64,000 nt of DNA from a virus, in IMG/VR virus record IMGVR_UViG_3300014202_000564. The stretch is one strand, 5' to 3'. The translations under genes were made by a program, and so were the position numbers. Below, in pieces: positions 8,394 to 64,000 of this stretch (positions are counted from its first letter, which is position 1; each line of letters opens with the position of its first letter). The notes under the pieces are model-generated. The model searched no databases, had not been told where the DNA came from, and saw only the letters and a program-made list of their open reading frames with translations.

Positions 8394-8972
8394 GTGAAGA
8401 TGATGAAAAGCTACATTACAGTATTAGATGGTGCGCTTACCCATAGTTTTTGTGTTGGTATGATTGAGAAGTTTGAGAAGAATGAAGAGCATGAGCAGGA
8501 AGACACCGATTGGGGAAACCGACACTTCAAAGAAATCAATATCACTTCCCATACGAATTGGGAAAAAGAAAATGACACAATGGTTAGGTCTGTGAATCAG
8601 TTATGGCGCGCTTATGCGCAGGAACATAAAATACTTCTTGATTCGCAGTGGCCCAAGACATTTGGATTTGAACAGTTCAGGATGAAGAGATATTTACCAA
8701 ACAATAAAGATGAATTTTCATTTCATACTGATGTTGGGAGCTATGCCTCATCGAGAAGATTTTTGTCGTTTTTGTGGTATTTGAATACGGTGGATCGCGG
8801 TGGTATGACTAATTTTGGTTATGAGCCAGCTTGTCCGCAGCCGTTTGCGTCGGTCCCTGCAGTAGAGGGAAGGGTCCTCATGTTCCCCCCTCTATGGACC
8901 TATCCCCATTGGGGAGAAAAACCAATTAGTGGTCCTAAGTATATTGTTTCTGGTTACTTACATTACCTCTAA
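8394..8972 (+). CDS. 2OG-Fe(II) oxygenase (prolyl-4-hydroxylase-like)
   Basis: HxD...H pattern: FSFHTDVG ... YPHWGEKP; GTG 8394 or ATG 8400/8403 are possible starts. Confidence 0.65.
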   Translation: MKMMKSYITVLDGALTHSFCVGMIEKFEKNEEHEQEDTDWGNRHFKEINITSHTNWEKENDTMVRSVNQLWRAYAQEHKILLDSQWPKTFGFEQFRMKRYLPNNKDEFSFHTDVGSYASSRRFLSFLWYLNTVDRGGMTNFGYEPACPQPFASVPAVEGRVLMFPPLWTYPHWGEKPISGPKYIVSGYLHYL

Positions 8973-8992
8973 ATATTGACGAAATATTATGT

Positions 8993-9910: not shown

Positions 9911-11136
9911 CAGATTTTAAGACATATCTAACAGAAGACAATGAGCCGAAAAACATACATCTTGAACATATTGAAGATCTGATGTTCAATGATGGGATTG
10001 ATGGTGTTGTAGGTGCTTTAAACTTCCTCACATCGCTTCGTGATATGCTTTCTGGTCATTCAAGGTTCAGTAAGATGAATGTCACCACCAAATGGGATGG
10101 TGCACCTTCTGTGGTTGCTGGGATTAACCCAGACAATGGTAAGTTTTTTGTTGGTACCAAGAGCGTCTTTTCCAAGAACCCAAAAATTAATTACACTGAG
10201 CAGGATATCATCACCAACCATGAATCCCCAGAACTCCAAGATAAATTAAAAATCTGTTTACGCTATCTTCCTAAGCTTGGCATCAAAGGTATTTTGCAGG
10301 GTGATATTTTGTTTACCGAGGATGAGCCAACGGTACAGGAAATTTCTGGTACCGATTATATAACTTTTACCCCCAATACCATCACCTATGCTATTCCAGT
10401 TCTTACAAAATTAGCGGATAGAATTGGTAAAGCAAAGCTTGGTATTGTTTTTCATACCGAGTACAGCGGAAAGACAATGGAGTCATTAAAAACCTCATTT
10501 AACGTTGATCTTGGTTATCTTCATAACACAAAGGATGTGTGGTTCAGGGATGCTAGTTTTATTGACGAGTCTGGCACAGCAACATTCACGGAGGTTGAGA
10601 CTGACTTGATGGATGCCAAGTTGGTAGAAGTCAACCGTAAATTTAAAAGCATTAACACTAGGGTCTTACAACAGATTTCCATGAACACTGTGTATCGAGA
10701 TCTTGTTAAGATGTACAACAATTCTGTTATACGAGAGGGTCAGTCGATAAAAGATACCATCGTCCATACTAATGGTCTGATCCGTTGGATAGACAAGAGA
10801 TTGTCGGCAAAGGTCCTTGAAGCTAAGAAGGTGGAGACACAAACGAAGCGGTTCAAAGAAAAGTCGAACATACTTGGTTTCTTTCAAGTTCATAGCAATG
10901 ATATTAGGATTCTTTTTGACTTGCAAAATGCTATTGTTTCTGCTAAACTATTGATCCTGGATAAATTATCAAAAGCGGAGAGTACGAAGAGTTTTATACG
11001 GGTGGAGTCTGGGTACAAAGTGACAAGACCCGAAGGATTTGTTGCAGTGGATATCCTTGGCAATGCGGTAAAGCTTGTTGATCGTCTTGAGTTCAGTCAT
11101 GAGAACTTTAAAGTGTCCAGGAGTTGGAAAAAATAA
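9904..11136 (+). CDS. putative covalent-nucleotidyltransferase (ligase-like) protein
   Basis: 410 aa; motif I-like TKWDGAPS, motif IV-like RPEGFVAVD, motif V-like AVKLVDR; GTG start overlaps the upstream stop. Confidence 0.45.
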   Translation: MVTDFKTYLTEDNEPKNIHLEHIEDLMFNDGIDGVVGALNFLTSLRDMLSGHSRFSKMNVTTKWDGAPSVVAGINPDNGKFFVGTKSVFSKNPKINYTEQDIITNHESPELQDKLKICLRYLPKLGIKGILQGDILFTEDEPTVQEISGTDYITFTPNTITYAIPVLTKLADRIGKAKLGIVFHTEYSGKTMESLKTSFNVDLGYLHNTKDVWFRDASFIDESGTATFTEVETDLMDAKLVEVNRKFKSINTRVLQQISMNTVYRDLVKMYNNSVIREGQSIKDTIVHTNGLIRWIDKRLSAKVLEAKKVETQTKRFKEKSNILGFFQVHSNDIRILFDLQNAIVSAKLLILDKLSKAESTKSFIRVESGYKVTRPEGFVAVDILGNAVKLVDRLEFSHENFKVSRSWKK

Positions 11137-11152
11137 TTGAACTGGAGATATA

Positions 11153-12046
11153 ATGGAACAACGGGATTTGGTGATTGGGTCTGTCACTGGATATAAATTT
11201 GAACAAATCTCTCCTTGGGTCAACTCGCTCGATGCATCCGGGTTCAAGGGAATGAAAGCTCTTGTGGTATACAATATGGATGCTGAGGGGGTCAAAGAAC
11301 TTTCAGATCGCGGGTACATCATTCTTGGATTTGAGAAGGACTCTGTAACAAATTCACTCCATTACCCCAAACCAAAATTCTCCATCGTCGTTGAGCGTTT
11401 CCTTCATTATTACCTCTTTCTCTATAGCAAAGAAAATCGCTACAATATAAGATACATCCTTTCCACTGATGTGAAGGATGTAATATTCCAAAAGAATCCA
11501 AGTCTCTTTTTTGATTCATGTGATTTGTTGGGGTCTGAGAAAGCTTGCTCCATCATTGCGTCTTCTGAAGAGTTGGAATACCAACATGAAGATTGGGGTA
11601 AGAATAATATGATTGAGTCGTATGGAACAATTTTCTATGAACGACACAAAACAAATACAATATACAATGCTGGAGTGATTGCCGGTAAGTTCCATACGTT
11701 TCTTGGTTTGTGCAAAACAATTTACCTCACTTCTGCAGGTGCCCCCCAATTTGTTCCTGGTGGCGGTGGTCCAGATCAAGCAGCCTATAATCTATTACTC
11801 GATACCGCTGCATACAAAAACATAACGCTACATACAGATCATGACACTGCTTGGGCGGCTCAATTGGGCACCACTGCAGACCCTTCTAAAATTAATAAGT
11901 ATCGTAGCTTTTTAAAAACCACTGGTCCATGTCTAGACACTGATAAGGGTCTTGTTGTTACACCAGTTGGTGAACCGTATGCTATCGTTCATCAATGGGA
12001 CCGAGTTCCTGAAGTTCGTAAATTTGTTGAGAGGAGATATGTATAA
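11153..12046 (+). CDS. hypothetical protein, possible GT-A-fold glycosyltransferase
   Basis: 297 aa; LSTDVKDVIF is a DxD-like segment; first gene of the sugar island. Confidence 0.4.
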   Translation: MEQRDLVIGSVTGYKFEQISPWVNSLDASGFKGMKALVVYNMDAEGVKELSDRGYIILGFEKDSVTNSLHYPKPKFSIVVERFLHYYLFLYSKENRYNIRYILSTDVKDVIFQKNPSLFFDSCDLLGSEKACSIIASSEELEYQHEDWGKNNMIESYGTIFYERHKTNTIYNAGVIAGKFHTFLGLCKTIYLTSAGAPQFVPGGGGPDQAAYNLLLDTAAYKNITLHTDHDTAWAAQLGTTADPSKINKYRSFLKTTGPCLDTDKGLVVTPVGEPYAIVHQWDRVPEVRKFVERRYV

Positions 12047-13071
12047 TGGCTTTTGAAGAACCCACTAAACCAGCACAACCAACACAAGCAGGTGTTCCGG
12101 TGAAGTTTGTTAAGCGTAAGTTGTTGTTTGTCGTTCATAGGTATGCTCCATTTCCAGGTGGGTCGGAAAATTACGTGAAAGATATGGCAGAAACGGCATA
12201 TTTCAGGGGTCATGATGTTGTAGTGCTTGCGGGTGAGCACAAGGGAAATCATAATGGTGTTCCTGTTACCTCTGATACTTCCATCCTCATGAACAGTTGG
12301 GATTTAATCGTTGTTCATGGTGGTGATGTGTCTATGCAAAATTATGTGTTGTCTAATGCGGATAAGTTTGGGGGTCCTGTTCTTTATCTTCTTATTCTTC
12401 CATCAAATTCCCCCACTTGCATTTCTGCATTGTATAAAGCTTCCTACCTGGGGTGCTCCACCTTAGCGGATTATCGTCATGTTAAGGGGTATAATGTCCA
12501 ACATAAGGCAGTTCGCGTTCGTCATGGAATCAATTGTAATCAGTCCATAGGTCCTCTTGGTTTTAGAGAAAAATATGGCATTACCACCAAGTATATGTTC
12601 CTCTCTTCTGGTGGGTTTTGGCCAAACAAGGGGTTTGATGAGTTGGTCGAAACATTTAACTCTATTGATCGAGATGATGTAACCCTTGTATTGACAGGGT
12701 ATGACAACCGAAATAACATCATGCCTCAGACCACAAAAAGGGTGAAGAGTCTCTTGCTCCACACCAGATCTATGATGCTCTCCGCATTGCGAGAAGCTGA
12801 TTTGTATGTATTGAATTCAACGTCTGAGGGGTTTGGGTTGGTGTTGTTAGAGGCGATGTTGAATGGCACTCCCTGGGTCGCAAGAAACATTGCTGGAGCT
12901 GAAACGCTACGTGAATATGGGGTCACCTATACAACCCAAGAAGAGTTGGTAAAATACATGACGGGGTTCATTGGCGTTCCCCATGAAGATCTAGTGACAG
13001 CACAGAATTATATTATTTCTTCACATCAGATATCACACACAGTTGCCGACATCTTGAGGATTATTCAGTAA
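12046..13071 (+). CDS. GT-B glycosyltransferase (GT1/GT4-like)
   Basis: C-terminal signature STSEGFGLVLLEAMLNGTPWVARN; N-terminal FPGGSENYV. Confidence 0.75.
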   Translation: MAFEEPTKPAQPTQAGVPVKFVKRKLLFVVHRYAPFPGGSENYVKDMAETAYFRGHDVVVLAGEHKGNHNGVPVTSDTSILMNSWDLIVVHGGDVSMQNYVLSNADKFGGPVLYLLILPSNSPTCISALYKASYLGCSTLADYRHVKGYNVQHKAVRVRHGINCNQSIGPLGFREKYGITTKYMFLSSGGFWPNKGFDELVETFNSIDRDDVTLVLTGYDNRNNIMPQTTKRVKSLLLHTRSMMLSALREADLYVLNSTSEGFGLVLLEAMLNGTPWVARNIAGAETLREYGVTYTTQEELVKYMTGFIGVPHEDLVTAQNYIISSHQISHTVADILRIIQ

Positions 13072-13748
13072 TGAAGATGACGTTTGGAATATGTACCAGT
13101 GGCAATGTGAGGCATAAGTCTCGCCCACCACACAATGATCTAAGTAGTTACTATACTACTATTGAGAGTATAAAGAGTCTTAACATCCCTGATGTTGAAA
13201 TTCTTACTGCAGACTGTTCGAGTGGTGTGTGGCTCACAGACAAGAAAAATGCCATCGCAAGGCAAGCTTCCCATGATGTCATTGTTCTCCTGCATGATTA
13301 TTTTACCTTTGATAAGCGATGGTATCAAGCTTACAAAGAATTTGGTGATAAGTGGGATGTGTGTTCAAACCCTCAGTTCCTTATGGATGGGAACCGACAT
13401 TTCACAGATTGGGTCATGTGGTACAATGAAAAGCCACCCGTTCAATATACTTCCATAGAGTACACCAATTGGAGTTACACCAAAAAACAATATATTAGTG
13501 GTGGGTTTTTCTTGGTCAAGAAGCAGTTTCTTCTTGATAATCCCCTGAACGAAGAATTGCCAGTTGGTTCTACAGAAGATGTGGAATGGTCCTTGCGAAT
13601 ACGCGATAAGGCAATGATTGCATGCAACCCCGCGGCACTTGTCATACATAATAAACAGCACAGAGACATGGGTAGAGTTGGGTTTCCATTTCAACAAACA
13701 ACCCATTTTCATATTGACTGGTATAAGAGGATGTTGAATTATGATTAA
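13071..13748 (+). CDS. hypothetical protein, possible glycosyltransferase
   Basis: 225 aa; start overlaps the upstream stop; weak GT-A-like VLLHDYF segment only. Confidence 0.35.
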   Translation: MKMTFGICTSGNVRHKSRPPHNDLSSYYTTIESIKSLNIPDVEILTADCSSGVWLTDKKNAIARQASHDVIVLLHDYFTFDKRWYQAYKEFGDKWDVCSNPQFLMDGNRHFTDWVMWYNEKPPVQYTSIEYTNWSYTKKQYISGGFFLVKKQFLLDNPLNEELPVGSTEDVEWSLRIRDKAMIACNPAALVIHNKQHRDMGRVGFPFQQTTHFHIDWYKRMLNYD

Positions 13749-15114
13749 TCGTCTAGTAATTTTTGATCTTGATGGGGTGTTAGTTGATTCTCGGAAGATC
13801 CATTTTGAGGCATTGAATCGCGCCCTATTAGACTGTAACCCAAAGTTTGTGATTTCCTGGGATGAACACCTTTCAAAGTATGATGGACTACCCACCACCA
13901 AGAAGTTACAGATGCTTACCAAGGAAAAAGGATTACCTACCGGTCTGTATGATTCCATTTGGAGAAGAAAACAAGACTATACCGTTGAGTTGTATGGTAA
14001 TATCGATGTAGATGAGAGCACACAATATTTGTGTGAAAAACTCAGAATGAATGCAATTAAGATTGCGGTTGCCTCAAATAGCATACGTGCTACTATGAAG
14101 ATTGCCCTTTTAAGAAAGGGAATTATGGAATATGTTGACTATATGGTTTCAAATGAAGATGTGAAAAGAGCTAAACCCTTTCCTGATATGTATTGGAAGG
14201 TTATGACTGCCCTCAATTCCATTCCAGAGAAAACCGTTATCATAGAGGATTCACATATTGGAAGACAAGCAGCTCTTGCGTCCAAAGCACACCTTCTCCC
14301 CATAGGTGGACCCGAAGATTTGACGGAAGCTGTTATTGATAATGCCATACATTATTTGGATGGTGGGAAGTTGGTTACCGTACCTTGGAGGAACAATAAG
14401 ATGAATGTGGTTATTCCTATGGCTGGGCATGGTTCGAGGTTCGCACAAGCGGGATATTCATTCCCCAAGCCTCTCATCGAAGTGAACGGTAAACCTATGA
14501 TTCAGGTAGTGGTAGAGAACCTGAATATTGAAGCTCACTATGTTTTCTTGGTACAAAGGGAACACTATGAGAAGTATCAGCTAAAATATATGTTGAATAT
14601 GATTGCTCCTGGATGCGACATCGTTCAAGTTGATGGTGTTACTGAAGGGGCTGCCTGCACAACTCTCCTTGCAGAAAAATTTATCAACAATGATGATCCG
14701 CTGTTGATTGCGAATTCTGACCAGTATGTAGAATGGGATTCGAATGAATGCTTGTACGCATTTACTGCAGATGGTATTGATGCGGGCATTTTGACATTTC
14801 ACTCCCTTCATCCCAAATGGTCCTATGCGAAGATTAATGAGAGGGGGTTTGTTGAAGAGGTAGCAGAAAAGAAACCGATTTCAGACCATGCTACAGTGGG
14901 TATTTACTATTGGAAGAAGGGCTCCGATTATGTCAAGTACGCAAAGCAGATGATCGAGAAGAATATTAGGACGAATAATGAATTTTATGTCTGCCCAGTG
15001 TTCAATGAAGCAATCGGGGATGGTAAAGTGGTTCGTGTCAAGGACATTCAGAAGATGTGGGGGATTGGTACACCAGAAGATTTAAAAACCTTTTTGGAGT
15101 CTCATAAGCAATGA
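13741..15114 (+). CDS. HAD phosphatase / sugar-phosphate nucleotidyltransferase fusion protein
   Basis: N-terminal HAD motif I FDLDGVLVDS, then ASNS and EDSHIG; C-terminal half has VVIPMAGHGSRF...FPKPLIEVNGKPMI (GxGxR nucleotidyltransferase loop). Confidence 0.75.
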   Translation: MINRLVIFDLDGVLVDSRKIHFEALNRALLDCNPKFVISWDEHLSKYDGLPTTKKLQMLTKEKGLPTGLYDSIWRRKQDYTVELYGNIDVDESTQYLCEKLRMNAIKIAVASNSIRATMKIALLRKGIMEYVDYMVSNEDVKRAKPFPDMYWKVMTALNSIPEKTVIIEDSHIGRQAALASKAHLLPIGGPEDLTEAVIDNAIHYLDGGKLVTVPWRNNKMNVVIPMAGHGSRFAQAGYSFPKPLIEVNGKPMIQVVVENLNIEAHYVFLVQREHYEKYQLKYMLNMIAPGCDIVQVDGVTEGAACTTLLAEKFINNDDPLLIANSDQYVEWDSNECLYAFTADGIDAGILTFHSLHPKWSYAKINERGFVEEVAEKKPISDHATVGIYYWKKGSDYVKYAKQMIEKNIRTNNEFYVCPVFNEAIGDGKVVRVKDIQKMWGIGTPEDLKTFLESHKQ

Positions 15115-16441: not shown

Positions 16442-16606
16442 ATGCCACATAGGATTTATGTTGATGTGAAGAATGAAGTTGATGCGTCCATCATTCAGCA
16501 GGTCATTCATGAATCTCTATGGAGACAGCGGGCAATGCGGCAAGGGAAAGAAGACCTAACTGTTCATCTAATCGATTTACCGGAGGATAATCATGAGTGT
16601 AAGTGA
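16442..16606 (+). CDS. hypothetical small protein
   Basis: 54 aa from ATG 16442 (track 16397 overlaps the upstream gene). Confidence 0.4.
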   Translation: MPHRIYVDVKNEVDASIIQQVIHESLWRQRAMRQGKEDLTVHLIDLPEDNHECK

Positions 16607-17330
16607 TAATGATTTTTTAAAGAGACAATCCAATTTCTGGAATGACATTGCGAAGACATGGAGTCTACAAAACAAGAATCCTATTGTCGGTTGGTATCAT
16701 GAGCACATGGCATTCCCGGAGTATGATAGTGTATTGTTCCGAGATCTTCCATTGACGGGTAATGAAGTTGTCTTGGAATATGGTTGCGGACCTGCAAGAA
16801 ACATTATCAAGTGGCATAAGAAATTTCAACGCATTGATGGTGTTGATATTGCTCCTGAGTGTATTGAAAAAGCGAAGTTGCATCTTGCAGCAGAGAGACT
16901 ACCTGAGCCTAATCTATGGGTTAATGATGGTCGGTCGTTGGATATGATTCCTTCAGCGGGTACCAATCCATATGATTCTAGCCAGTTCCCCGGTTACGAT
17001 TTGGTGTTCATGGTTATCAGTCACCAACATATCACTTCTCGTTCAGTCAGGTTGAATTTGTATAGTGAGTTTTTGCGCGTGTTGAAGCCTGGTGGATATC
17101 TCTGTTTCCAAACTGGGTTTGGTCCTGGGCATCCCCGTTCGGTGGACTATTTTACAGATTCCTTTAACACCGAATCAGAATTTGTGGACAAGGACGTTCG
17201 GGTTGAAGATGTTGAGCATCTTCGCAAGGATCTTGTTGATGTGGGGTTTGAGTGGGTGGGTCACAAACTTACTCGTACCTGCAAAGACGAGCATCCATTG
17301 TGGATTTGGGTCCAGTGTCGTAAACCATAA
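16593..17330 (+). CDS. class I SAM-dependent methyltransferase
   Basis: motif I VLEYGCGPARN, then GVDI, LKPGGYLCFQTGFGPGHP. Confidence 0.75.
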   Translation: MSVSDNDFLKRQSNFWNDIAKTWSLQNKNPIVGWYHEHMAFPEYDSVLFRDLPLTGNEVVLEYGCGPARNIIKWHKKFQRIDGVDIAPECIEKAKLHLAAERLPEPNLWVNDGRSLDMIPSAGTNPYDSSQFPGYDLVFMVISHQHITSRSVRLNLYSEFLRVLKPGGYLCFQTGFGPGHPRSVDYFTDSFNTESEFVDKDVRVEDVEHLRKDLVDVGFEWVGHKLTRTCKDEHPLWIWVQCRKP

Positions 17331-17361
17331 TATCATAATTTTAAATTAGAAAGAGAATATC

Positions 17362-18048
17362 ATGGCAGATGAAATGTTGCGTCAGTTTTGGGGTGAAGAA
17401 GCTTCTCGTTGGTCATTGCAAAATAAAAATCCATTAGTTGGATGGTACAATGAACATATGGCTGATGAGAAAGAGGGGAAGCTTTTGTTCCGAGGGGTTC
17501 AAACTCACATTGGGTCTCATGCTTTGGAATATGGGTGCGGTCCAGGTAGAAACATCATCAAGTTTAAAGATTGGTTTGGTCGCATTGATGGTGTAGATAT
17601 TTCAAGCGAAATTCTTGCTAAACTTCCAGCGAATCTAGCAGAATCACAGGTTCAAGTGCCCAATCTTTATCATACGAATGGTCATTCTCTGAGTATGATT
17701 AATTCTTCAATCTACAATGTGGTCTTCTCCATCATTTGTATGCAACATATTGGTTGCAGGGATTGGAGATTGGAACTCTATCGAGAGATCCATAGAGTTT
17801 TGGTGCCTGGTGGTTATTTCTGTTTTCAGATGGGGTTTGGTCCTGGACACCCCATATCGGTTGATTACTTTCACAATTATGATGAAACCGATACATCCCA
17901 TAGGGATACGAGGGTTGAGGATGTGGAAGTTCTTAAGAAAGATCTTGAAGATCAGGGGTTTGTGGGGTTTGATTATGTTTTGACGGAACCCTGTCATGAC
18001 GTTCATCCCCAATGGATTTGGGTTCGAGTACAGAAACCCACAGAATAG
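17362..18048 (+). CDS. class I SAM-dependent methyltransferase (tandem paralog)
   Basis: ALEYGCGPGRN, GVDIS, LVPGGYFCFQMGFGPGHP; collinear with the 16593-17330 product (WSLQNKNP.VGWY.EHMA). Confidence 0.75.
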   Translation: MADEMLRQFWGEEASRWSLQNKNPLVGWYNEHMADEKEGKLLFRGVQTHIGSHALEYGCGPGRNIIKFKDWFGRIDGVDISSEILAKLPANLAESQVQVPNLYHTNGHSLSMINSSIYNVVFSIICMQHIGCRDWRLELYREIHRVLVPGGYFCFQMGFGPGHPISVDYFHNYDETDTSHRDTRVEDVEVLKKDLEDQGFVGFDYVLTEPCHDVHPQWIWVRVQKPTE

Positions 18049-18641: not shown

Positions 18642-20753
18642 ATGAAGCCGCTATACATTCCTAAGCATGGTCTCAATATACAACGTTCCCAACTTCCACA
18701 GATCAAGTCTACAGATGTGTCCGCTTTCATTCAGTGGCTCAAGACCAAAAAGAATATAAAAGTCACACATACCGAGTTCCCCGTTGCTTCTCTCTATCCT
18801 TCTCAGGGTGAGTTTAATGAAGTAAAAATCAGACAGTTGATGAAGGATAAGCGGGAGCACTTAAAAAAACCTATTATCATGTCTGGAGATCATTACCTCT
18901 TAGATGGGCATCATCGTTGGATTGCTCTGCTCAATATTGACAATAAAGAGACGATTCCTGCTATTGTGGTCCATGCAAAAATTCTGGATCTTCTCTCCGC
19001 TGCAAAAGAATTCCCCAAGTCGTTCACTAAAACTGTGGTTGAATCATTTACCTCTCATATTCAGGAACCACATTTAGTCATGACGTTTGGTCGTATGAAT
19101 CCTCCAACACTTGGTCATGAGAAATTGATTCAGAAGGTTCATGAGATTGCACATAAACACAATGCAGATCATAAAGTTATCCTATCCCATACCCAAGATA
19201 GAAACAAGAATCCTTTAGATCAAGAGTCTAAGATCCGGCACACCAGTGCGATGTTTCCGGGTACCAAGATAATGGGGTCAACAAAGGAACATCCATCGTT
19301 ACTTCACCATGCAACTTTAGCACATAAGTCTGGGGTTAAGCATTTACATGTTGTCATGGGGGATGACCGAGTTGATGAGTTTAATACTTTGTTAAATAAG
19401 TATAATGGTCATATTGATGATGCGGGCAATGGATTCCACTTCAAATCCATCACCGTCCATTCAGCAGGACATAGAGATGCGGATGGAGAGGGGATTGAGG
19501 GGGTTTCCTCTAGTAAAATGAGAGAGCATGCAAAGAATAATAACTTTCAGGAATTTAAGAAAGGTATTCCAAGCACCATGTCACTAGATAACGCAGAGCA
19601 ATTATTCTACGATGTTAGGAAGTCGATGGGTATGTTAGAAGAAGAGAGACAATTGCTATCCGAAGGTGTACATGATGCATCTATTTTTAAAGCTGTATTT
19701 TTAGCTGGTGGTCCTGGATCGGGAAAAGATTTTGTTCTTAAGAAAGCACTTGATGGGCATGGACTGGTAGAAATTAATTCAGATAAGGCTCTTGAGTATC
19801 TGATGGACAAACATAAGCTTGACATGAAGATGCCAGAGCATGAGACGAAGAGACGAGACGAAGTAAGAGCTAAGGCTAAGTCCGTCACTGAACTCAGACA
19901 TCGTTTCGCTCTTGAGGGTCGCAATGGGATTATTATCAACTCCACAGGTGCAGATGCAAAGAAAATAGGAAAGATTAAGAGTGTTCTTGATGAGTTGGGA
20001 TACGATTCTAAGATGTTGTTTGTTGATACAAGTGATGATGTGTCTCGTCAGAGGAATGTTGAAAGAGGACAACGCGGCGGACGTTTAGTTCCTGAAAAGC
20101 TTCGTTCCTCCAAGTGGAAGGAGGCACAGGATGCCCGCGTAGAATTCTCAAAGATCTTTGGAACTGAGCACTATCATGAGTTCAAAAATGATGAGGATTT
20201 GCGCACTAATTTAGATCCAGAGGTACATAAGGCAAAGAGTAAAGAGCTACTAGATCTATTCAAAACAGTTAAGAAGTTCAGCCAGTCGGAACCAAAACAT
20301 CCGAAAGCACAAGAATGGATTCAGAGCAATTTGGGCAAGCTTGCTAAAAAACCAATTGGCAATAAGAAGCAGCAAAGTTCGGTAACCCCACCAAATGACC
20401 AATCTGAAGCAGCAAAGCAAGCACAGCAGATGGGACTGCAGTATTATGGGTTTGGTCGCTATGGTAAGGGTGGTCGAATCACTCACTTCTCATTACATGA
20501 TAAGCTGGTTGAGAAGAAGAAGGTTATGGAGAAACCAAAAGAAGTTGCTAAGCAGCCAGTTAAAGAATCCCTTGATGATGCATTCGCTAATTTACTTACT
20601 GAGGGTGAACCTGTTCTTGATTTGGGTGGTGAGGGTGGACCCATACTTGGTATGGATAAGGGCGAAAAGGAAGTTATTTCTCCTTTAAGTGGAGGCAAAG
20701 CAACAACAGGACCCAAGAAAACATTCAGAGATTTGCGAACGGAGAAGAAGTAA
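18642..20753 (+). CDS. ParB-like nuclease domain / HIGH-motif nucleotidyltransferase / P-loop kinase fusion protein
   Basis: aa 80-100 GDHYLLDGHHRWIAL (ParB/Srx fold); aa 148-160 TFGRMNPPTLGHE plus SSSKMRE (cytidylyl/adenylyltransferase HxGH and ISSTxxR); aa 353-363 FLAGGPGSGKD (Walker A); Lys/Glu-rich tail. Confidence 0.65.
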   Translation: MKPLYIPKHGLNIQRSQLPQIKSTDVSAFIQWLKTKKNIKVTHTEFPVASLYPSQGEFNEVKIRQLMKDKREHLKKPIIMSGDHYLLDGHHRWIALLNIDNKETIPAIVVHAKILDLLSAAKEFPKSFTKTVVESFTSHIQEPHLVMTFGRMNPPTLGHEKLIQKVHEIAHKHNADHKVILSHTQDRNKNPLDQESKIRHTSAMFPGTKIMGSTKEHPSLLHHATLAHKSGVKHLHVVMGDDRVDEFNTLLNKYNGHIDDAGNGFHFKSITVHSAGHRDADGEGIEGVSSSKMREHAKNNNFQEFKKGIPSTMSLDNAEQLFYDVRKSMGMLEEERQLLSEGVHDASIFKAVFLAGGPGSGKDFVLKKALDGHGLVEINSDKALEYLMDKHKLDMKMPEHETKRRDEVRAKAKSVTELRHRFALEGRNGIIINSTGADAKKIGKIKSVLDELGYDSKMLFVDTSDDVSRQRNVERGQRGGRLVPEKLRSSKWKEAQDARVEFSKIFGTEHYHEFKNDEDLRTNLDPEVHKAKSKELLDLFKTVKKFSQSEPKHPKAQEWIQSNLGKLAKKPIGNKKQQSSVTPPNDQSEAAKQAQQMGLQYYGFGRYGKGGRITHFSLHDKLVEKKKVMEKPKEVAKQPVKESLDDAFANLLTEGEPVLDLGGEGGPILGMDKGEKEVISPLSGGKATTGPKKTFRDLRTEKK

Positions 20754-46118: not shown

Positions 46119-46283
46119 ATGAGGAAAGAAAAGAAGTGTCCAGGTCTGCATGCCAGGGATTGTGATAATCCCCGTTCGAAGACGCTACACACTTGTCCAT
46201 ACAAAGAAGATCTGTATGCCGATCTGGGCACAATGTGTGCATGTTGTGATGACTGTAGGAAACGATGTCAAGATGAGACCTAA
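46119..46283 (+). CDS. small Cys-rich protein
   Basis: 54 aa with 8 Cys (CACCDDCRKRC); its 3' end overlaps ATG 46273. Confidence 0.4.
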   Translation: MRKEKKCPGLHARDCDNPRSKTLHTCPYKEDLYADLGTMCACCDDCRKRCQDET

Positions 46284-46797
46284 CTGGCACGGTCCTATGT
46301 ATCGCGTGGTGTCTGGTGTGCAGAGTCCTGCCGCAATGCGGTTGCGCTACAAAGTTTTCGCTGAAGAATTGCACTGGATACCGGAGACCCCAGACCGACA
46401 GGACCAGGATGAATATGATGCACAGTGTATGCCCTACGCGGTGTATATGGATGATGCACCAATCGCGTATGCTCGCGTGATTCATGAAGAACACCAATAT
46501 ATGATCGAAAAAGATTTTCTTGATGTGCTGCCCACCCCATTCAATAAAAAGAGCAGCGCGGAAGTTTCGCGTCTCTGTGTTGATCCATTTGTGCGTCATG
46601 ATGGGTTTCCTATCGTCTCGATGCTGTTGAAGAGTATCCATAGGGATCTGAAATCGCTGGGTGTGGAGTATGCGTATTTTGTGACGATTGCGCCAGTGGT
46701 TCGAGTGCTACGGAGGATTGGGGTGCCGGTGCATGTGTTGGTGAAGACGGAGAGTAAGTTATCTGCAGTTGTGAATATTTCCGAATGGATCTATTAG
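46273..46797 (+). CDS. GNAT-fold N-acyltransferase of the autoinducer-synthase (LuxI) / N-acyl-amino-acid synthase type
   Basis: RLRYKVFAEELHWIPETPDRQDQDEYD ... AEVSRLCVDP follows the R..vF..elgW......E.DeyD and S-R-l-x-V pattern; start ATG 46273 (track 46150). Confidence 0.5.
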   Translation: MRPNWHGPMYRVVSGVQSPAAMRLRYKVFAEELHWIPETPDRQDQDEYDAQCMPYAVYMDDAPIAYARVIHEEHQYMIEKDFLDVLPTPFNKKSSAEVSRLCVDPFVRHDGFPIVSMLLKSIHRDLKSLGVEYAYFVTIAPVVRVLRRIGVPVHVLVKTESKLSAVVNISEWIY

Positions 46798-59305: not shown

Positions 59306-59498
59306 GGAAATATTGGATGCGGTAGAGAAGTTTGTCTGTGAGTGTGAATTTGAAGCGACTCATGAAGCAGTTGAAGCTGGGTTTGGTATTGTGGGATGGG
59401 AGATCATGATTGTATTCCACCCCCTCTATGAACAATATGTCCTTTCGAAAGAATTTCTCACTCATTATGCTAACAAAGTTTCCTTGGTGTCCCAATGA
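59298..59498 (+). CDS. hypothetical acidic protein
   Basis: ATG 59298 within track ORF 59085-59498; avoids a 220-nt overlap. Confidence 0.45.
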   Translation: MNEEILDAVEKFVCECEFEATHEAVEAGFGIVGWEIMIVFHPLYEQYVLSKEFLTHYANKVSLVSQ

Positions 59499-60070
59499 AC
59501 GATACCTATAAGTCCATGTTAATAGATCTGTTTTATAAAACTGATTCATACAAAGAAGACCACATTCATCCTTTTCTGTTGTCTTCTGGTGAGGAGAGCC
59601 CATATTACGTTGACTGCAGGAGGCTACTATCATACCCATATGCAAGAAAATTGGTTGGGGAAATGGGGGCATGGCTTCTGAGGGACCTTTCGGTTGATTG
59701 TGTTGGTGGGTTAGAGTCTGGGGCGATATCGGTTGCACAATCCATTTCCGATCAAACCAACACCCGTTTGTTCTATGTTAGAAAAAATCAACGGACACAT
59801 GGTGCAAAGGGAATAATCGGGGCGATTGAGGGGGCGGTACGTGCCCAGGATCGAGCGGTGATTGTCGATGATGTGTTCACAACGGGGGAGTCGGTAATTA
59901 AAGCTGCTACTGCAGTGCGGGAAGCGGGGTTACTGGTGAGCAATGCGTTGGTTATTGTGAATAGATCTGAAGATTTTATAGCAGCACAGACCCTCTTACA
60001 GAAACATGGGATTAGGACCCATAGCATTTTAAAAATGAGAGACATTTCGGAGTTTAAAAGTTTAAAATGA
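59495..60070 (+). CDS. pyrE: type I phosphoribosyltransferase, orotate PRTase-like
   Basis: FLLSSGEESPYYVDCR (like FxLxSGxxSPYYxD) and PRPP loop RAVIVDDVFTTGESV. Confidence 0.6.
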   Translation: MNDTYKSMLIDLFYKTDSYKEDHIHPFLLSSGEESPYYVDCRRLLSYPYARKLVGEMGAWLLRDLSVDCVGGLESGAISVAQSISDQTNTRLFYVRKNQRTHGAKGIIGAIEGAVRAQDRAVIVDDVFTTGESVIKAATAVREAGLLVSNALVIVNRSEDFIAAQTLLQKHGIRTHSILKMRDISEFKSLK

Positions 60071-60405
60071 AGCAGCCGAAACATCTATATGTTATCACAA
60101 GAAAGGATCTTTCCCCTGGGTACCAAGGAGTCCAGGGCATGCATGCATTGGTTGAGTTCTCTGCAAAATTTCCTGAGTTATATCTTAAGTGGTATAAGAC
60201 TTCCAACTACCTCTGTTTCCTTTCTGTGTGGGACGAAAAGGAGCTGAAAGCTCTTGCAAGAAAAGCAATGAAGTTGGGGGTTATGGTGTCCACGTTTCAT
60301 GAACCGGATGTCAATTTTGAAATGACTGCAATTGTGTTGGAAGTTGGCTCGAAGTCTATGAAAATAACCAAGAAACTAACATTAGCACTGAAGGAGTGGC
60401 CATAA
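60067..60405 (+). CDS. peptidyl-tRNA hydrolase 2 (Pth2)-fold protein
   Basis: 112 aa; LYVITRKDLSPGYQGVQGMHA and KELKALARKAMKLGVMVSTFHEPD are collinear with archaeal/eukaryotic Pth2 (VVRNDLKMGKGKxAAQxxHA ...). Confidence 0.6.
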   Translation: MKQPKHLYVITRKDLSPGYQGVQGMHALVEFSAKFPELYLKWYKTSNYLCFLSVWDEKELKALARKAMKLGVMVSTFHEPDVNFEMTAIVLEVGSKSMKITKKLTLALKEWP

Positions 60406-60947
60406 TGAGTACGAAGATTTACAATGGATTCCAGACTTCATTTGGTGATCTTGAAACGTTTTTGGATCTTGTTCATACGTTTCGTGATGGGTATTGGAAG
60501 AAGGGAGCAATAGAGCTGAGGGAGAAGTTTGTCGCCGCAGCTTTTGCTGGGTTTCCTGTTCAGGATGCAGAGGCAAAGAGGAAAGCGTATAGCCTTTGGT
60601 GGGATCTTTCTAGTAAAGCGCGAACCTCGACCACCAGGCAACCAGCATTAGACACAGATTTTAAAGTAACCATTTTTCCTGATTCGGGTCGGTTTATTGG
60701 TATCGCATATACAGAGCATGATAAGTGGTTTGAAGCATGGTTAAAGTTGCCAGGAATTCGAGAGTATGGATATTGGAATAACGTTGATCCTCCAGACCAT
60801 GTAACTGACGAGGAGTGGGAAGCTCGAAGGGAAGTATGGGACCGCGTTTTGCCTGGATGTGGTATTCCAGCTATGGAGGGATTTTCCATCGATGTGAGTG
60901 ATACTTTTGGTGCACCCATTGCAACCCTTGAGGAGATGGGGTTATGA
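60405..60947 (+). CDS. hypothetical protein
   Basis: ATG 60405 (TAATG overlap; track GTG 60396). Confidence 0.6.
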   Translation: MSTKIYNGFQTSFGDLETFLDLVHTFRDGYWKKGAIELREKFVAAAFAGFPVQDAEAKRKAYSLWWDLSSKARTSTTRQPALDTDFKVTIFPDSGRFIGIAYTEHDKWFEAWLKLPGIREYGYWNNVDPPDHVTDEEWEARREVWDRVLPGCGIPAMEGFSIDVSDTFGAPIATLEEMGL

Positions 60948-61213
60948 TGAAATATGATCCTGAGCTTCCCTACGCAAAACAGCTTTTTGCTTCTCTTTTC
61001 TTAATTGCAGCGTTGTATGCCGGTTCGATGTTTCTCAGTGCTCTGATAGCTGTATGCGTCTCTTTGGCATCAGGGTTTTCGATGGGCTATGGTTGGTTGT
61101 TCGAGGAACTTGGCACGATGGTTGCAACAGTTTTGGTAATTGGGTTCTGGTGGGTTATATTCACCCTGTCTATGAAATATTATGTTAACTGTGATAGAAA
61201 GGAGAAGAAGTGA
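60944..61213 (+). CDS. membrane protein (3 TM)
   Basis: 89-aa track ORF; ATGA overlap. Confidence 0.55.
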   Translation: MMKYDPELPYAKQLFASLFLIAALYAGSMFLSALIAVCVSLASGFSMGYGWLFEELGTMVATVLVIGFWWVIFTLSMKYYVNCDRKEKK

Positions 61214-61289
61214 GAACCATACATTACTTTTTCTATTTCATGATCGGTATTGGGTTGGGGATGTCCCTTGCAACTCTCTGGGGAGTATC

Positions 61290-61598
61290 ATGACAACATC
61301 ACAAGAGCTGCAAGATCTAAAAGAAGAGACTATCCTTTCAACACTCAAAAAGTTAAAAGAAGAGAATAAGGCTCTGAAAGACGAGATTGAGTATTATAAG
61401 AAAATGAAGCAGGGTATTGTGATGTTCTTGTCTGGTAGACAGATTTGTGCATCTACATTCATTGATGATGAAACAATTACATACGGATATGGTGATCTTG
61501 ACAGGATCGGGTGTTGGGAATATTCTGTCCCCTCTATCATAGTGAAGTACGTTCAAGAATTGCGAGAGAAAATTAAATTACTCGAAAATAAGAGTTGA
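61290..61598 (+). CDS. hypothetical coiled-coil protein
   Basis: ATG 61290 follows GGGGAG (track 61182). Confidence 0.5.
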   Translation: MTTSQELQDLKEETILSTLKKLKEENKALKDEIEYYKKMKQGIVMFLSGRQICASTFIDDETITYGYGDLDRIGCWEYSVPSIIVKYVQELREKIKLLENKS

Positions 61599-61623
61599 CG
61601 AGGGTAAGTGACTGTGGTAGTAT
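61595..61623 (+). promoter_or_regulatory. sigma70-type promoter of the ncRNA
   Basis: TTGACG 61595-61600 (overlaps the upstream stop), N17, TGgTAGTAT (-10 at 61618-61623). Confidence 0.55.
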
Positions 61624-61631
61624 GTTGAATT

Positions 61632-61918
61632 GTGGGGTGTGGCTGATAGACTCATTCTACAGGGTCAAGGCGTAGTACCTGAAAGGACCAGGGAAAGCAC
61701 AAGTAGAATGGTGGAGGTAAGGCTGAAGGATACCAGAAGATCCTAATCTGGTAGAGCGCAAGGCATTCGGTAGCTCCCTATACACCAGTAGACGAATGCT
61801 TGGGAGTAGACACTCTCCCCAGAACGCAGAGATCCGTAACCGGAACGGGTTGAGTTCTGTAGCCAAATAACCGAACACCAAACGAACGTTGGGGGGCCTG
61901 GAAATCCCCCCACCCCAC
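61632..61918 (+). ncRNA. candidate ~287-nt structured RNA of unknown class
   Basis: no ORF; own promoter; 5' GTGGGGT (61632-61638) pairs with 3' ACCCCAC (61912-61918); many internal helices; GC hairpin and T-run at the 3' end. Confidence 0.55.
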
Positions 61919-61925
61919 TTTTTAT
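61891..61925 (+). terminator. terminator-like GC hairpin and T-tract
   Basis: GGGGGG-CCTGGAAAT-CCCCCC then ACCCCAC then TTTTTATT; the T-run is 7 nt from the hairpin, so atypical. Confidence 0.45.
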
Positions 61926-61926
61926 T

Positions 61927-62142
61927 ATGGAGCCTATGATGGAAACATACTGCAACGAACTAGCACAGAGACATATAGCAAATGCGGAAAATCTTCTGAG
62001 AGAAGCATTTAAAAGCTTACACTATGCAAAAGAATACATTGCATTGATGAATAGAATTCGTACTACCGGCGAAGTAAAATGTGTGCTTGATTGTATCTCC
62101 CCACCACCCGATGCCATTGTTCTGGAGAAGCAGAATGTATAA
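61927..62142 (+). CDS. hypothetical protein
   Basis: 71-aa track ORF; ATG 61939 has better GGAG spacing. Confidence 0.5.
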   Translation: MEPMMETYCNELAQRHIANAENLLREAFKSLHYAKEYIALMNRIRTTGEVKCVLDCISPPPDAIVLEKQNV

Positions 62143-62503
62143 GATCCAACAAAACAAAAAGACACCCCTATTCAGCGTGACTATAAAAGATTGCGAGATC
62201 CAGACATTTCGTGCTGGTGGGAAGGGTGGGCAAAATCAAAATAAGGTTGAGTCTGGTGTGCGTATCATTCACCATCCATCCGGGTCTCGCGGAGAATCTA
62301 GGGAATTCAGAACCCAGTTAGAAAACAAAAAAGCAGCATTTGCGCGAATGGGGAAGACTGAGACATTTCAGAGATGGGCTCGTAGTATGGCAGCTAAACT
62401 TCGCGGTGAGAAGTCTTTGGAGGATCGAGTAGAAGAATCAATGATACCACAAAATTTACTTATCGAAGAGCAATCCGCTGATGGATGGAAGGTGACATCA
62501 TGA
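62135..62503 (+). CDS. GGQ-domain release-factor-like protein (ArfB/PrfH-like peptidyl-tRNA hydrolase)
   Basis: FRAGGKGGQNQNKVESGVRIIHHPSG...RTQLENKKAA matches the class I RF GGQ domain; 122 aa from ATG 62135 (track 62081). Confidence 0.75.
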   Translation: MYKIQQNKKTPLFSVTIKDCEIQTFRAGGKGGQNQNKVESGVRIIHHPSGSRGESREFRTQLENKKAAFARMGKTETFQRWARSMAAKLRGEKSLEDRVEESMIPQNLLIEEQSADGWKVTS

Positions 62504-63120
62504 ACACAGACGATCCGATTAGGGATGAAATTGATACAATGATTCTCCGCAAAATAGCTGAGACAGAATTTCAAACATTCAATAAAATTCCACGGCTTTC
62601 TCGTCGTTGTGTGGTTACTGAAAAGATTGATGGGACCAATGCTCAACTCCTTATCACAGAGGATGGTAAATTGTTTGCGGGCAGTCGCTCTCGATGGCTT
62701 GTCGAGAATGATGTGTTGAAATGTGATAATTTTGGGTTTGGTGCTTGGGCACTCCAACATAAGGATGAGTTGGTTACAGGTCTTGGGATAGGAAGACATT
62801 TCGGAGAGTGGTGGGGCGCAGGTATTCAGCGTAAGTATGGGTTGAAGGAAAAGAGGTTTTCTCTATTCAATACAGATCGTTGGAAGGAAGATAATAAACC
62901 TGCCTGTTGTCATGTGGTACCAGTATTGTACGATGGAATGTTCACAACCAACGAGATTAACGTAACCCTTGCTCATTTGGCATTTAATGGGAGCGTTGCT
63001 GCTCCTGGGTTCATGAAGCCAGAGGGTATCGTTATCTATCATGTTGCTGCAAATTCGTTCTTTAAGAAGACCATTGAGGGGGATGAAAGTCCAAAGGGAT
63101 TAGTTGACAATAATGGATAA
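62500..63120 (+). CDS. ATP-dependent RNA ligase, Rnl2-like adenylyltransferase domain
   Basis: motif I EKIDGTN, III HFGEWWG, IV PEGIVIYH, V FFKKT; ATG 62500 overlaps the RF-like stop (ATGA). Confidence 0.7.
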   Translation: MNTDDPIRDEIDTMILRKIAETEFQTFNKIPRLSRRCVVTEKIDGTNAQLLITEDGKLFAGSRSRWLVENDVLKCDNFGFGAWALQHKDELVTGLGIGRHFGEWWGAGIQRKYGLKEKRFSLFNTDRWKEDNKPACCHVVPVLYDGMFTTNEINVTLAHLAFNGSVAAPGFMKPEGIVIYHVAANSFFKKTIEGDESPKGLVDNNG

Positions 63121-63394
63121 GGGTGTTAGACTCAGGGCAGTGCTAGATGAGGATGATTGGTGGTTGGGATGGACCACTGATAGAGGTATCCCAACATGGG
63201 TGCCAATGCAGGTTCAAGAGTGGATCGTTACGAAGTGGAACTTGGTTGTATGTTGGTTCAAGGGGCATCGGATAGTAGGAGAGATCCGAGGAACACTTTG
63301 TAGTCACTGTATGCACTGTATGACTGAAACCCTAGGTACTGGTTGTCGATGGTGTGAACTTGATGATAAAGACCTGGAGGAATTAGATGATTAA
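63113..63394 (+). CDS. small Cys-rich protein
   Basis: ATG 63113 within track ORF 63104; CSHCMHC...GCRWC. Confidence 0.5.
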   Translation: MDKGVRLRAVLDEDDWWLGWTTDRGIPTWVPMQVQEWIVTKWNLVVCWFKGHRIVGEIRGTLCSHCMHCMTETLGTGCRWCELDDKDLEELDD

Positions 63395-64000
63395 GTCATT
63401 TGTGAAATATAAGAAAATCAAATTTCCTGCCGGCGAAATGCATGTTCAACTCCTTCTTGAGGACGATGTGACATATCCTGATAAGGGGAATGTTGAGTGG
63501 TTATTTGAATCCACTGAGGAGATCATGGAGATACTACTTTTGAGTAGTGCTCTAAAACAACATGGGTATAAAATAGATAAATTGATCATTCCCTATTTTC
63601 CATTTTCTCGCCAGGATCGTGTAGCCAATTATGGGGATTGTTTTTCGCTCAAGGTGATGTGTGGGTTAATTAATCAGTTGGGAGCAGAGGAAGTCGTAAC
63701 ACATGACCCCCATTCCGATGTTCTTCCTGCATTGTTAGATAATGTGTATGTCGTTCACCAATCGACAATTTTCTATCCTATGTTGAATTCATGGTTTTCC
63801 CATGATGATAATGTGATTCTCATTTCCCCTGATGCAGGGGCGCTTAAGAAAATCTATCGTCTCTCTAAGGAATCCTTTAAAGTTAAGGGGGTTGTGGAGT
63901 GCAGTAAGCTTCGAAATACACAAACCGGAGACATTACCGGAGTCAAGGTTAATGCGCCCGCACATGAATTAGACGGTAAAACCTGTGTGATGGTAGATGA
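63387..64000 (+). CDS. prs: ribose-phosphate pyrophosphokinase (Prs)-like protein, 3' end outside window
   Basis: KFPAGEMHVQL, IPYFPFSRQDR (like PYxxYxRQDR), ISPDAGALKK; open to the window end. Confidence 0.75.
   Translation, partial: MIKSFVKYKKIKFPAGEMHVQLLLEDDVTYPDKGNVEWLFESTEEIMEILLLSSALKQHGYKIDKLIIPYFPFSRQDRVANYGDCFSLKVMCGLINQLGAEEVVTHDPHSDVLPALLDNVYVVHQSTIFYPMLNSWFSHDDNVILISPDAGALKKIYRLSKESFKVKGVVECSKLRNTQTGDITGVKVNAPAHELDGKTCVMVD

Follow-up and report, generated by a model that had tools for sequence, protein, structure and literature searches.

In bacteria, the release factor homolog PrfH and the RNA ligase RtcB2 constitute an experimentally demonstrated rescue-then-repair pair, in which release precedes religation of the rRNA (PMC9304027, PMC9223846, PMC13166195). 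For phages, tRNAs, RNA ligases, and the peptidyl-tRNA hydrolase PTH2 have been proposed to repair RNA and to rescue jammed ribosomes (PMC7824862, section 3.4.9), and genes for RF-1 domain proteins and PTH2 have been noted in mycobacterial tRNA arrays (PMC5966550); in the literature on phage RF-1 domain genes, we found neither a function nor a link to RNA ligases. Here, we analyze a 64,000-nt stretch of the virus record IMGVR_UViG_3300014202_000564 (hereafter, the window), in which the gene for a stand-alone GGQ domain protein of 122 amino acids (aa) overlaps the gene for a minimal ATP-dependent polynucleotide ligase of 206 aa, with a conserved structured RNA located upstream. The original prediction, made from the nucleotide sequence, was that the two genes form a ribosome-rescue and RNA-repair pair. 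The domain assignments, the tight gene junction, and the adjacency of the same GGQ family to RtcB in other phages speak for this prediction, whereas neither co-occurrence of the two genes outside one phage clade nor a polynucleotide kinase/phosphatase among the window proteins screened was found.

GGQ domain protein

The first gene of the pair begins with an ATG at 62135 and terminates with a TGA at 62501-62503. As predicted, its product contains the class I release factor (RF) catalytic domain: it matches the Pfam family RF-1 (PF00472; E 3.3e-16, 59.7 bits against a cut-off of 35) over profile positions 6-67 of 116, as well as PHROG 3122 (E 6e-29), and it belongs to this catalytic domain family, with the RF domain-3 fold. 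The GGQ tripeptide occupies residues 31-33 within the segment GGKGGQNQNKVESGVRIIHHPSG (residues 28-50). The family comprises at least 880 members of ~104-135 aa; the core DC..F..GG.GGQ..N and residues R43, H46, S49, E54, R56, Q61, and N64 are invariant among the 50 members aligned, and a C-terminal segment, RVEE.M.P.NL.VE.....W, is conserved as well. Mycobacterium phage proteins contain the same RF-1 domain family at 44-50% identity.

The AlphaFold2 (AF2) model of the protein (predicted local distance difference test [pLDDT] score 88) comprises one β-sheet and three helices in total; beyond the RF domain-3 fold, there is a short helix and then a β-hairpin. In Foldseek comparisons, this model matched domain 3 of RF1, RF2, mtRF1a, and PrfH with a probability of 1.0, with mtRF-R ranking 38th (7a5h_C, E 3e-3) and ArfB 48th, and in a sequence search of the PDB, the best match was the GGQ domain of PrfH (9mor_A, 2.5e-10), followed by mtRF1, RF1, and RF2. 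The structural comparison, which had been suggested as a check on both proteins, upheld the assignments to RF domain 3 and, for the ligase, to the Rnl5/Rnl2/Rnl3 group. Also in agreement with the prediction, the codon-recognition domains 2/4 of RF1 and RF2 (PxT or SPF) are absent, as is domain 1, judging by the length of 122 aa, the Pfam match, and the model.

The protein had further been likened to ArfB and PrfH. The tail (residues 86-122) is acidic rather than basic, with a net charge of -3 (the family median is also -3), and no ArfB was hit in the PDB sequence search at E<=0.01; the ArfB-like reading is therefore rejected. The resemblance to PrfH holds for the catalytic domain but not for the decoding domain, which is absent: the alignment with 9mor_A covers only PrfH residues 107-167, and the phage protein is ~100 aa too short for a PrfH. 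Thus, by sequence and predicted structure, the 122-aa protein appears to be a bona fide but sensor-less GGQ hydrolase. By analogy with mtRF-R, action on large subunits still holding peptidyl-tRNA would be a plausible route for such a protein.

Ligase

The ligase open reading frame (ORF) starts with the ATG at 62500-62502 and ends at 63120, so that, as originally described, its start and the GGQ stop share the sequence ATGA at 62500-62503; this junction is conserved in the clade. An alternative in-frame ATG at 62485, which was chosen in the Joint Genome Institute (JGI) gene call (P0121), yields a protein of 211 aa, but the start at 62500 is preferred because of the better Shine-Dalgarno sequence, GAAGGTGA, located 5 nt upstream. 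The four predicted motifs are all in place, namely, EKIDGTN (residues 41-47), FGEW (101-104), EGIVI (175-179), and FKK (188-190). More generally, the protein contains all the covalent nucleotidyltransferase motifs, I (KxDG), Ia, III, IIIa, IV, and V, including the catalytic lysine K42, and residues K42, D44, G45, S62, R63, E103, F123, E175, G176, and K189 are invariant in 47 homologs. It matches the Pfam family RNA_ligase (PF09414; E 1.1e-11, 45.6 bits against a cut-off of 27) and PHROG 548 (E 7e-26), and it represents a family of at least 8,000 scored homologs that are typically 177-211 aa long and consist of the adenylyltransferase domain only.

In profile searches with this family, the sole credible relative with a solved structure was T4 Rnl2 (1s68, 2hvq; E 1.5e-3), the match ending at query position 111. 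The AF2 model (pLDDT 92) retrieved first the Naegleria Rnl5 (NgrRnl), T4 Rnl2, and archaeal Rnl3; DNA ligases ranked lower, except for the African swine fever virus (ASFV) DNA ligase, which was among the top matches. The C-terminal domain of Rnl2 is absent, the protein ending 16 residues past motif V with no further domain in the AF2 model, and so is the N-terminal oligonucleotide-binding (OB)-like module of Rnl5, with only one helix (residues 6-22) preceding the adenylyltransferase fold and most homologs lacking even that. Hence, the earlier assignment to the Rnl2 family stands for the adenylyltransferase domain and its motifs but does not extend to the C-terminal domain, and, on the sequence and model comparisons, the ligase can be called Rnl2-like in the catalytic domain only. 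Specificity for RNA rather than DNA appears likely given the ranking, with RNA ligases leading both the profile and the fold searches. Because the motifs are invariant (50 GGQ and 47 ligase family members) and the confident AF2 models match RF domain 3 and RNA-ligase domains, respectively, both proteins are predicted to be catalytically competent. In a 966-bp contig encoding an identical GGQ protein (L154, 408-965), the ligase frame is split in two, the outcome of either a pseudogenizing frameshift or a misassembly.

Conservation of the gene pair

The GGQ gene is followed by the ligase gene, with the two overlapping or abutting, in a set of related loci (L006, L152/153, L155/156, L160, L161, L166, L173, and L176) in which the GGQ proteins are 67-79% identical to that of the window, and the pair is kept in every examined relative in this identity range that has this ligase. 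The extent of the overlap varies, from 1 nt (L155) to 4 nt (L152) to 8 nt (L160 and L161). Within the clade, the ligase gene is usually followed by a small ORF, a Prs-like gene, and a NAMPT-like gene. By the co-occurrence test, the pairing of the GGQ protein with an Rnl2-like ligase is a feature of this lineage.

Adjacency of the GGQ family to RtcB and tRNA arrays

The original prediction invoked the PrfH-RtcB pair by analogy, and in this respect, it was corroborated by members of the same GGQ family that adjoin RtcB itself. In the large phages L005 (4527-6348) and L159 (3540-5363), RtcB is followed by a small ORF (93-101 aa) and then by the GGQ gene, and in L004 (1-638), an RtcB fragment lies 21 nt upstream of the GGQ gene. 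The GGQ proteins of these three loci are 68-70% identical to that of the window, with otherwise unrelated flanks. In L005 and L159, a T7-type DNA ligase is encoded a few genes upstream of the RtcB-small ORF-GGQ array, and no tRNA array was found within the fetched flank. More distant members of the GGQ family occur in Mycobacterium prophages and their relatives in the order tRNA array (with tmRNA), GGQ, (tRNA-Glu), RtcB, as in prophiGD54-2, L037, L038, L071, L026, and the Mycolicibacterium palauense genome L184. The ligase adjacency of the GGQ family therefore involves three junction types and ligases of two unrelated folds and chemistries, always within ~0.7 kb and on the same strand. The adjacency of the same GGQ family to RtcB provides real comparative support for the analogy with PrfH-RtcB.

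Nevertheless, the commonest context of the GGQ family is phage tRNA arrays, not ligases. Genes for tRNAs were found within 6 kb of the GGQ gene at 28 of the 60 IMG/VR loci, 20 of these with at least 6 tRNAs and several with tmRNA. PTH2 is encoded within 2.1 kb of the GGQ gene in the window clade and at two other loci, L014 and L021. At the latter two (L014, 6001-7368; L021, 6001-8213), the GGQ gene, PTH2, and a CUA-anticodon, amber-reading tRNA (denoted "Pyl" by ARAGORN) all fall within 2.2 kb, a proximity that may link the GGQ family to stop-codon recoding. In L166, the GGQ protein of which is 79% identical to that of the window, an array of 20 or more tRNA genes is accompanied by an RNase P RNA (bacterial class A, 198 bits, 13753-14065), all within 8074-14653, that is, 4-10 kb 3' of the GGQ-ligase pair, a position that in the present phage would fall beyond the window end. 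In a separate observation, a gene of the Acb2/Tad1-hairpin family (anti-CBASS/anti-Thoeris sponge fold) is located at L162 (1727-2395), 2.6 kb 5' of a ligase-less GGQ gene, which fits an anti-defense or early-gene neighborhood.

Structured RNA upstream of the operon

The region preceding the operon contains a 287-nt sequence, the DNA of which is 84, 79, 74, and 70% identical to that of relatives, as compared with ~65-70% for the flanking genes. An RNA structure of 78 base pairs is backed by 7 distinct homologs: 96.7% of the cells in paired columns are compatible with pairing, as against 38-44% with the partners slid, and 35 pairs change on both sides, as against 6-9 with the partners slid; the observed covariation was reached in 0 of 500 shuffles. 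The closing helix, GUGGGGUG/CACCCCAC, consists of 8 Watson-Crick pairs with no G:U, and a 6-bp hairpin lies immediately before its 3' strand, giving the molecule the look of a tRNA-like acceptor/T-arm, with UGGAA rather than UUCRA as the T-loop-like sequence. The core is multibranched, with four hairpins and a possible loop-to-strand pseudoknot between AUUCUAC and GUAGAAU. The promoter boxes in front of the RNA are kept in the relatives as TTGACA...TATAAT/TATACT with the N17 spacing, and, with no conserved terminator before the next ORF, the RNA is probably cotranscribed with the GGQ operon.

A search with the covariance model built for this RNA (R1) located it in this clade only, 5' of the GGQ-ligase pair in every examined locus with the RNA, and gave no hits to more distant copies in the vicinity of other GGQ or ligase genes; one member of the clade, L161, keeps the pair without the RNA. 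No Rfam family matched at E<=10. A tmRNA was considered and rejected: ARAGORN gave no prediction at default settings and inconsistent ones at relaxed thresholds, there was no Rfam tmRNA hit at E<=10, and the RNA has no consistent tag reading frame, no canonical T-loop, and no G:U identity pair. Likewise, RNase P, the signal recognition particle (SRP) RNA, T-box, riboswitches, and group I/II introns received no Rfam support, the lone hit being to group-II D1 in one homolog (E 3.1), and a sarcin-ricin-loop mimic (UAGUAC...GGACC) was dismissed as well, given that covariation favors the pairing CCUG/CAGG. A pattern scan of metagenomes for further homologs yielded 14 hits, 10 of which were the end of an unrelated protein-coding gene with a chance 22-mer match. 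We consider the 287-nt RNA a candidate for a new RNA family.

Genomic neighborhood

The window has a GC content of 42.7% and represents the arm of a large tailed phage that is devoted to replication and nucleotide metabolism, encoding PolB, a UvsX-like recombinase, DnaB, primase, and ribonucleotide reductase (RNR). A GGQ protein identical to that of the window (P0001) is encoded in a 168,789-bp contig, and no close DNA relatives were found among GenBank phages by megablast. In the 64 kb, ARAGORN identified no tRNA or tmRNA genes, and no Rfam family matched at gathering thresholds. The features surrounding the pair are listed in Table 1.

Table 1. Features of the GGQ-ligase locus and its flanks in the window
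Feature	Coordinates	Strand	Evidence or remark
Phosphoribosyltransferase (PRTase) gene	59495-60070	+	Precedes the PTH2 gene
PTH2-type (archaeo-eukaryotic) peptidyl-tRNA hydrolase	60067..60405	+	Pfam PTH2 1.2e-5, 25.9 bits (cut-off 23); PHROG 1866 1.4e-15
3 ORFs, function unknown	60396-61598	+	
Apparent gap (holds the structured RNA)	61599-61926		
Sigma-70-like promoter, TTGACG-17-TAGTAT	61595..61623	+	Consensus scan; in front of the structured RNA
Conserved structured RNA, ~287 nt	61632..61918	+	Covariation; covariance model R1, 326 bits
Small ORF, 71 aa	61927..62142	+	ORF list; start possibly ATG 61939 behind GGAG
Stand-alone GGQ peptidyl-tRNA hydrolase domain (RF-1 / RF-PH), 122 aa	62135..62503	+	Pfam, PHROG, Foldseek
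Minimal ATP-dependent (lysyl-AMP type) polynucleotide ligase, 206 aa, nucleotidyltransferase domain only	62500..63120	+	PF09414, PHROG 548
Cys-rich small ORF (CxxCxxC...CxxC), probably zinc-binding	63113..63394	+	ORF list, sequence
Phosphoribosyl pyrophosphate (PRPP)-synthetase-like (Prs-like) gene, cut by the window end	63387..64000	+	Pfam Pribosyltran_N 6e-8

The PTH2 gene, located 1.7 kb 5' of the GGQ gene on the same strand and syntenic in L006, L152, L155, L166, and L173, provides a second peptidyl-tRNA hydrolase in this neighborhood, one that is chemically unrelated to the GGQ protein. The small ORF following the RNA overlaps the GGQ start by 8 nt and is 43% identical to the ORF in the same position in L173, and the Cys-rich ORF, which overlaps both the ligase stop and the Prs-like start, is kept 3' of the ligase in L006 (50%), L166 (64%), and L173 (60%); neither ORF had a match in the Pfam and PHROG searches. 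The Cys-rich protein, the gene of which is translationally coupled to both of these neighbors, may serve the domain-poor ligase as a zinc-ribbon accessory. In relatives, the Prs-like gene is followed by a NAMPT-like gene (NAMPT_N/NAPRTase; L152 7272-9556, L155 7401-9781, L160 6344-8993), the PDB sequence matches of the two being ribose-phosphate pyrophosphokinase and nicotinamide phosphoribosyltransferase. The phage NAD+ reconstitution pathway NARP1 (Adps and Namat), which is ADP-ribose (ADPR)-specific (10.1101/2024.02.11.579819, PMC13586617), is defined by adjacent PRPS-like and NAMPT-like genes, and the occurrence of such a candidate pair in the relatives suggests a counter-defense neighborhood.

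Elsewhere in the window, an ORF at 46150-46797 (+) matches the autoinducer synthase and N-acyl amino acid synthase GNAT families (PF00765, 3e-10; PF13444, 2e-9). A separate gene cluster (12046-15114 and 18642-20753, +) encodes a GT4 "conflict-system" glycosyltransferase, a HAD phosphatase fused to a sugar-nucleotidyltransferase, two methyltransferases (16593-18048), and a 703-aa protein combining a cytidylyltransferase-like domain with a Zeta-toxin/AAA_33 P-loop kinase (18642-20753, +). The cluster could function in NAD metabolism of the NadR type or else in a pathway for nucleotide sugars or DNA modification.

Possible functions of the locus

Our favored interpretation, to which we assign about an even chance of being correct, is that the locus encodes a phage module for rescue and repair of the translation apparatus, with a minimal GGQ hydrolase clearing blocked ribosomes and a minimal ATP-dependent ligase resealing RNA. 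The module would act alongside PTH2 and, in relatives, phage tRNAs. Under this model, a single transcription unit would comprise the 287-nt RNA, followed by the genes for the GGQ protein, the ligase, the zinc-ribbon-like protein, and the Prs-like protein, with the NAMPT-like gene next in relatives. The 122-aa hydrolase, acting independently of codons, would enter the A site of the large subunit and release the nascent peptide from ribosomes unable to elongate after a cut in tRNA, mRNA, or rRNA, and the ligase, adenylylated by ATP on K42, would then seal 3'-OH/5'-P breaks in the damaged RNA. In this manner, the module would keep the translation apparatus working while host nucleases attack; the biochemical activities, the substrate, the order of events, and the counter-defense role are those that we infer. 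Should this interpretation be correct, phages would have arrived at the two-step logic of PrfH-RtcB2 on at least three occasions, using a much smaller GGQ protein and ligases of two different chemistries, and a counter-defense against RNA-cutting immunity would be added. The many phage genes annotated as "RF-1 domain" would acquire a first testable function, and it would have to be asked by what mechanism a GGQ domain on its own selects the appropriate ribosomes. Independent of this interpretation, the covarying RNA in front of the operon offers a clear genetic handle.

Several observations weigh against this interpretation. Co-occurrence of the two genes, which the original prediction had put forward as a check, holds within the clade but not outside it: only 1 of the 80 loci of the ligase family in IMG/VR has a GGQ gene, so that a general association of this ligase family with GGQ genes is rejected, and 44 of the 48 GGQ clusters (at 75% identity) lack a ligase within ~6 kb. 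In bacterial genome records, a ligase was found near 1 of the 23 full-length GGQ matches, and there is no adjacent ligase beside the GGQ gene in the cultured phages WXIN, ScottMcG, Tunturi_4, and Nanosmite. When clusters are taken as the units, the statistical support for closeness, given presence, is modest (binomial P = 0.037). The ATGA overlap itself carries little weight because overlaps are routine in the window, where ~25 same-strand junctions (counted from the ORF list) overlap, many by 1-10 nt, for example, at 59495/59498, 60067/70, and 60944/47. As for the proteins, the GGQ protein has neither the ArfB tail nor the PrfH decoding domain and no recognizable sensor of stalled or damaged ribosomes, and the ligase is devoid of the accessory domains without which the characterized Rnl2 and Rnl5 enzymes do not seal nicks completely (for Rnl5, PMC1807946). 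Furthermore, with an ATP-dependent ligase, the repair of 2',3'-cyclic-P/5'-OH ends would depend on a polynucleotide kinase/phosphatase, and no kinase/phosphatase that heals such ends was found among the ~36 window proteins screened; the P-loop kinase candidate at 18642-20753 is a cytidylyltransferase-like fusion with a weak match to polynucleotide kinase (phrog_505, E 7e-6).

The sparse co-occurrence would be explained if the adjacency were inherited rather than functional, with two independent accessory genes that happen to be neighbors in a single phage lineage, the GGQ protein aiding phage translation generally, for example, by rescue of non-stop or tRNA-starved ribosomes, and the ligase having a job of its own, such as repair of tRNA or RNA nicks. 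This possibility, which we regard as somewhat unlikely yet deserving serious attention, is consistent with the near-complete failure of the Rnl2-like ligase and the GGQ gene to meet outside the clade, with the routine gene overlaps, and with the prevalence of tRNA arrays among the neighbors of the GGQ gene. It also accommodates L178, a phage of the RtcB type in which the GGQ gene pairs with RtcB while an Rnl2-like ligase stands elsewhere, alone; this case, too, counts against a functional pairing. Moreover, RtcB is a frequent gene of phage tRNA arrays, and its adjacency to the GGQ gene could therefore reflect shared location. It is harder to reconcile inherited adjacency with the recurrence of three junction types involving two unrelated ligase folds, uniformly close and on the same strand, and with L005 and L159, where the RtcB-small ORF-GGQ order is kept away from any tRNA array in the fetched flank. 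A quite different possibility, which we consider very unlikely, is that the locus serves offense or DNA metabolism, with the GGQ protein prematurely releasing host nascent chains to effect shut-off and/or the ligase sealing DNA nicks for the replication module. The gene content of the window, the presence of the ASFV DNA ligase among the top Foldseek matches, and the potential, in principle, of a codon-independent GGQ factor to work on any ribosome whose A site is unoccupied would all be compatible with this, as would the failure of tblastn with the L005 enzyme to find a T7-type DNA ligase in the 64 kb, a weak point given that ~105 kb of the phage lie outside the window. However, the closest sequence and structure matches of the ligase are the RNA ligases Rnl2, Rnl5, and Rnl3, with cellular DNA ligases lower; the L159-type contig has a DNA ligase beside RtcB, and L178, which encodes the same Rnl2-like protein (P0170), has that DNA ligase, too; and the tRNA, tmRNA, and PTH2 context of the GGQ gene points to support of translation rather than its block.

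The RNA could also be central to the locus, as a working partner or sensor of the operon, although we deem this improbable. In possible versions of such a system, a tRNA-like end would bring the sensor-less GGQ domain to empty A sites, in a tag-less relative of trans-translation; or the RNA would be a leader that switches on the rescue and repair genes upon damage to tRNA or to the nucleotide pool; or the RNA itself would be the substrate of the ligase. Its conservation above that of the neighboring genes, the very strong covariation, its own conserved promoter with no conserved terminator before the GGQ operon, its position 5' of the pair wherever it occurs, and the closing helix with the directly stacked hairpin resembling the acceptor/T-arm of tRNA and tmRNA all point in this direction, as does the lack of a targeting domain in the GGQ protein. 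Set against these features are the restriction of the RNA to one clade, the survival of the pair without it in L161, its absence near all other GGQ and ligase loci, the lack of a match to any tmRNA, tRNA, T-box, or riboswitch model, and the noncanonical T-loop-like sequence together with the missing tag frame. It would be surprising if the 287-nt RNA, the sensor-less GGQ protein, and the accessory-domain-less ligase made up one ribonucleoprotein system, in which the RNA guides the GGQ protein to stalled ribosomes or senses RNA damage and licenses the operon; in the damage-sensing version, the ligase could possibly have as its target the RNA itself or substrates that the RNA binds. If they did, this would be a new class of phage ribosome-rescue and RNA-repair device built around a new RNA family.

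Comparison with known systems

The rescue-and-repair module that we favor most closely recalls PrfH-RtcB2 (PMC9304027, PMC9223846, PMC12829566), where a GGQ release factor homolog is likewise encoded beside an RNA ligase; in the PDB sequence search, the phage GGQ domain matched PrfH best, and other members of the phage GGQ family adjoin RtcB. Unlike the phage protein, which consists of the catalytic domain, a short helix, and a hairpin in 122 aa, PrfH has ~200-230 aa, including a divergent domain 2/4 by which the damaged decoding center is recognized. No RtcB was found in the window, the partner of the GGQ protein here being the PF09414 ligase, and the two ligases differ in the ends they join: RtcB needs 3'-P or 2',3'-cyclic-P and 5'-OH, whereas the ligase of the window is of the ATP-dependent lysyl-AMP type, which needs 3'-OH/5'-P ends. 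Among other GGQ proteins, ArfB (YaeJ) and ICT1 are also small and codon-independent, but ArfB relies on a long, basic tail at its C terminus to detect that the mRNA channel is empty, in contrast to the negatively charged region that follows the domain in the phage protein. The protein mtRF-R (C12orf65), which functions with MTRES1, is another minimal GGQ protein without a decoding domain and acts on the split large subunit holding peptidyl-tRNA; however, the fold match is weak, and no MTRES1-like partner was identified at the phage locus.

With respect to the ligase, T4 Rnl2, the family of which also includes the trypanosome editing ligases, and the Rnl5 enzymes of Naegleria (NgrRnl) and Deinococcus (DraRnl) have the adenylyltransferase fold and motifs in common with the protein of the window, which dispenses with the C-terminal domain of the former and the N-terminal OB module of the latter. 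At the level of gene sets, the phage RNA-repair systems, namely, Pnkp and Rnl1 of T4 directed against PrrC and the tRNAs, RtcB/Rnl1/Rnl2, and PTH2 of jumbo phages (PMC7824862), follow the same proposed logic with partly the same genes (PTH2 and an RNA ligase, and tRNAs in relatives), but the peptidyl-tRNA hydrolase listed in that survey is PTH2 rather than a bacterial-type GGQ domain, and the window proteins screened include no end-healing enzyme. The actinobacteriophage genes annotated as "RF-1 domain peptide chain release factor" (PHROG 3122; PMC5966550), already noted inside tRNA arrays, belong to the same family as the GGQ protein described here. Taken together, these comparisons place the GGQ-ligase pair as a variant of PrfH-RtcB and of phage RNA repair, not as a new category.

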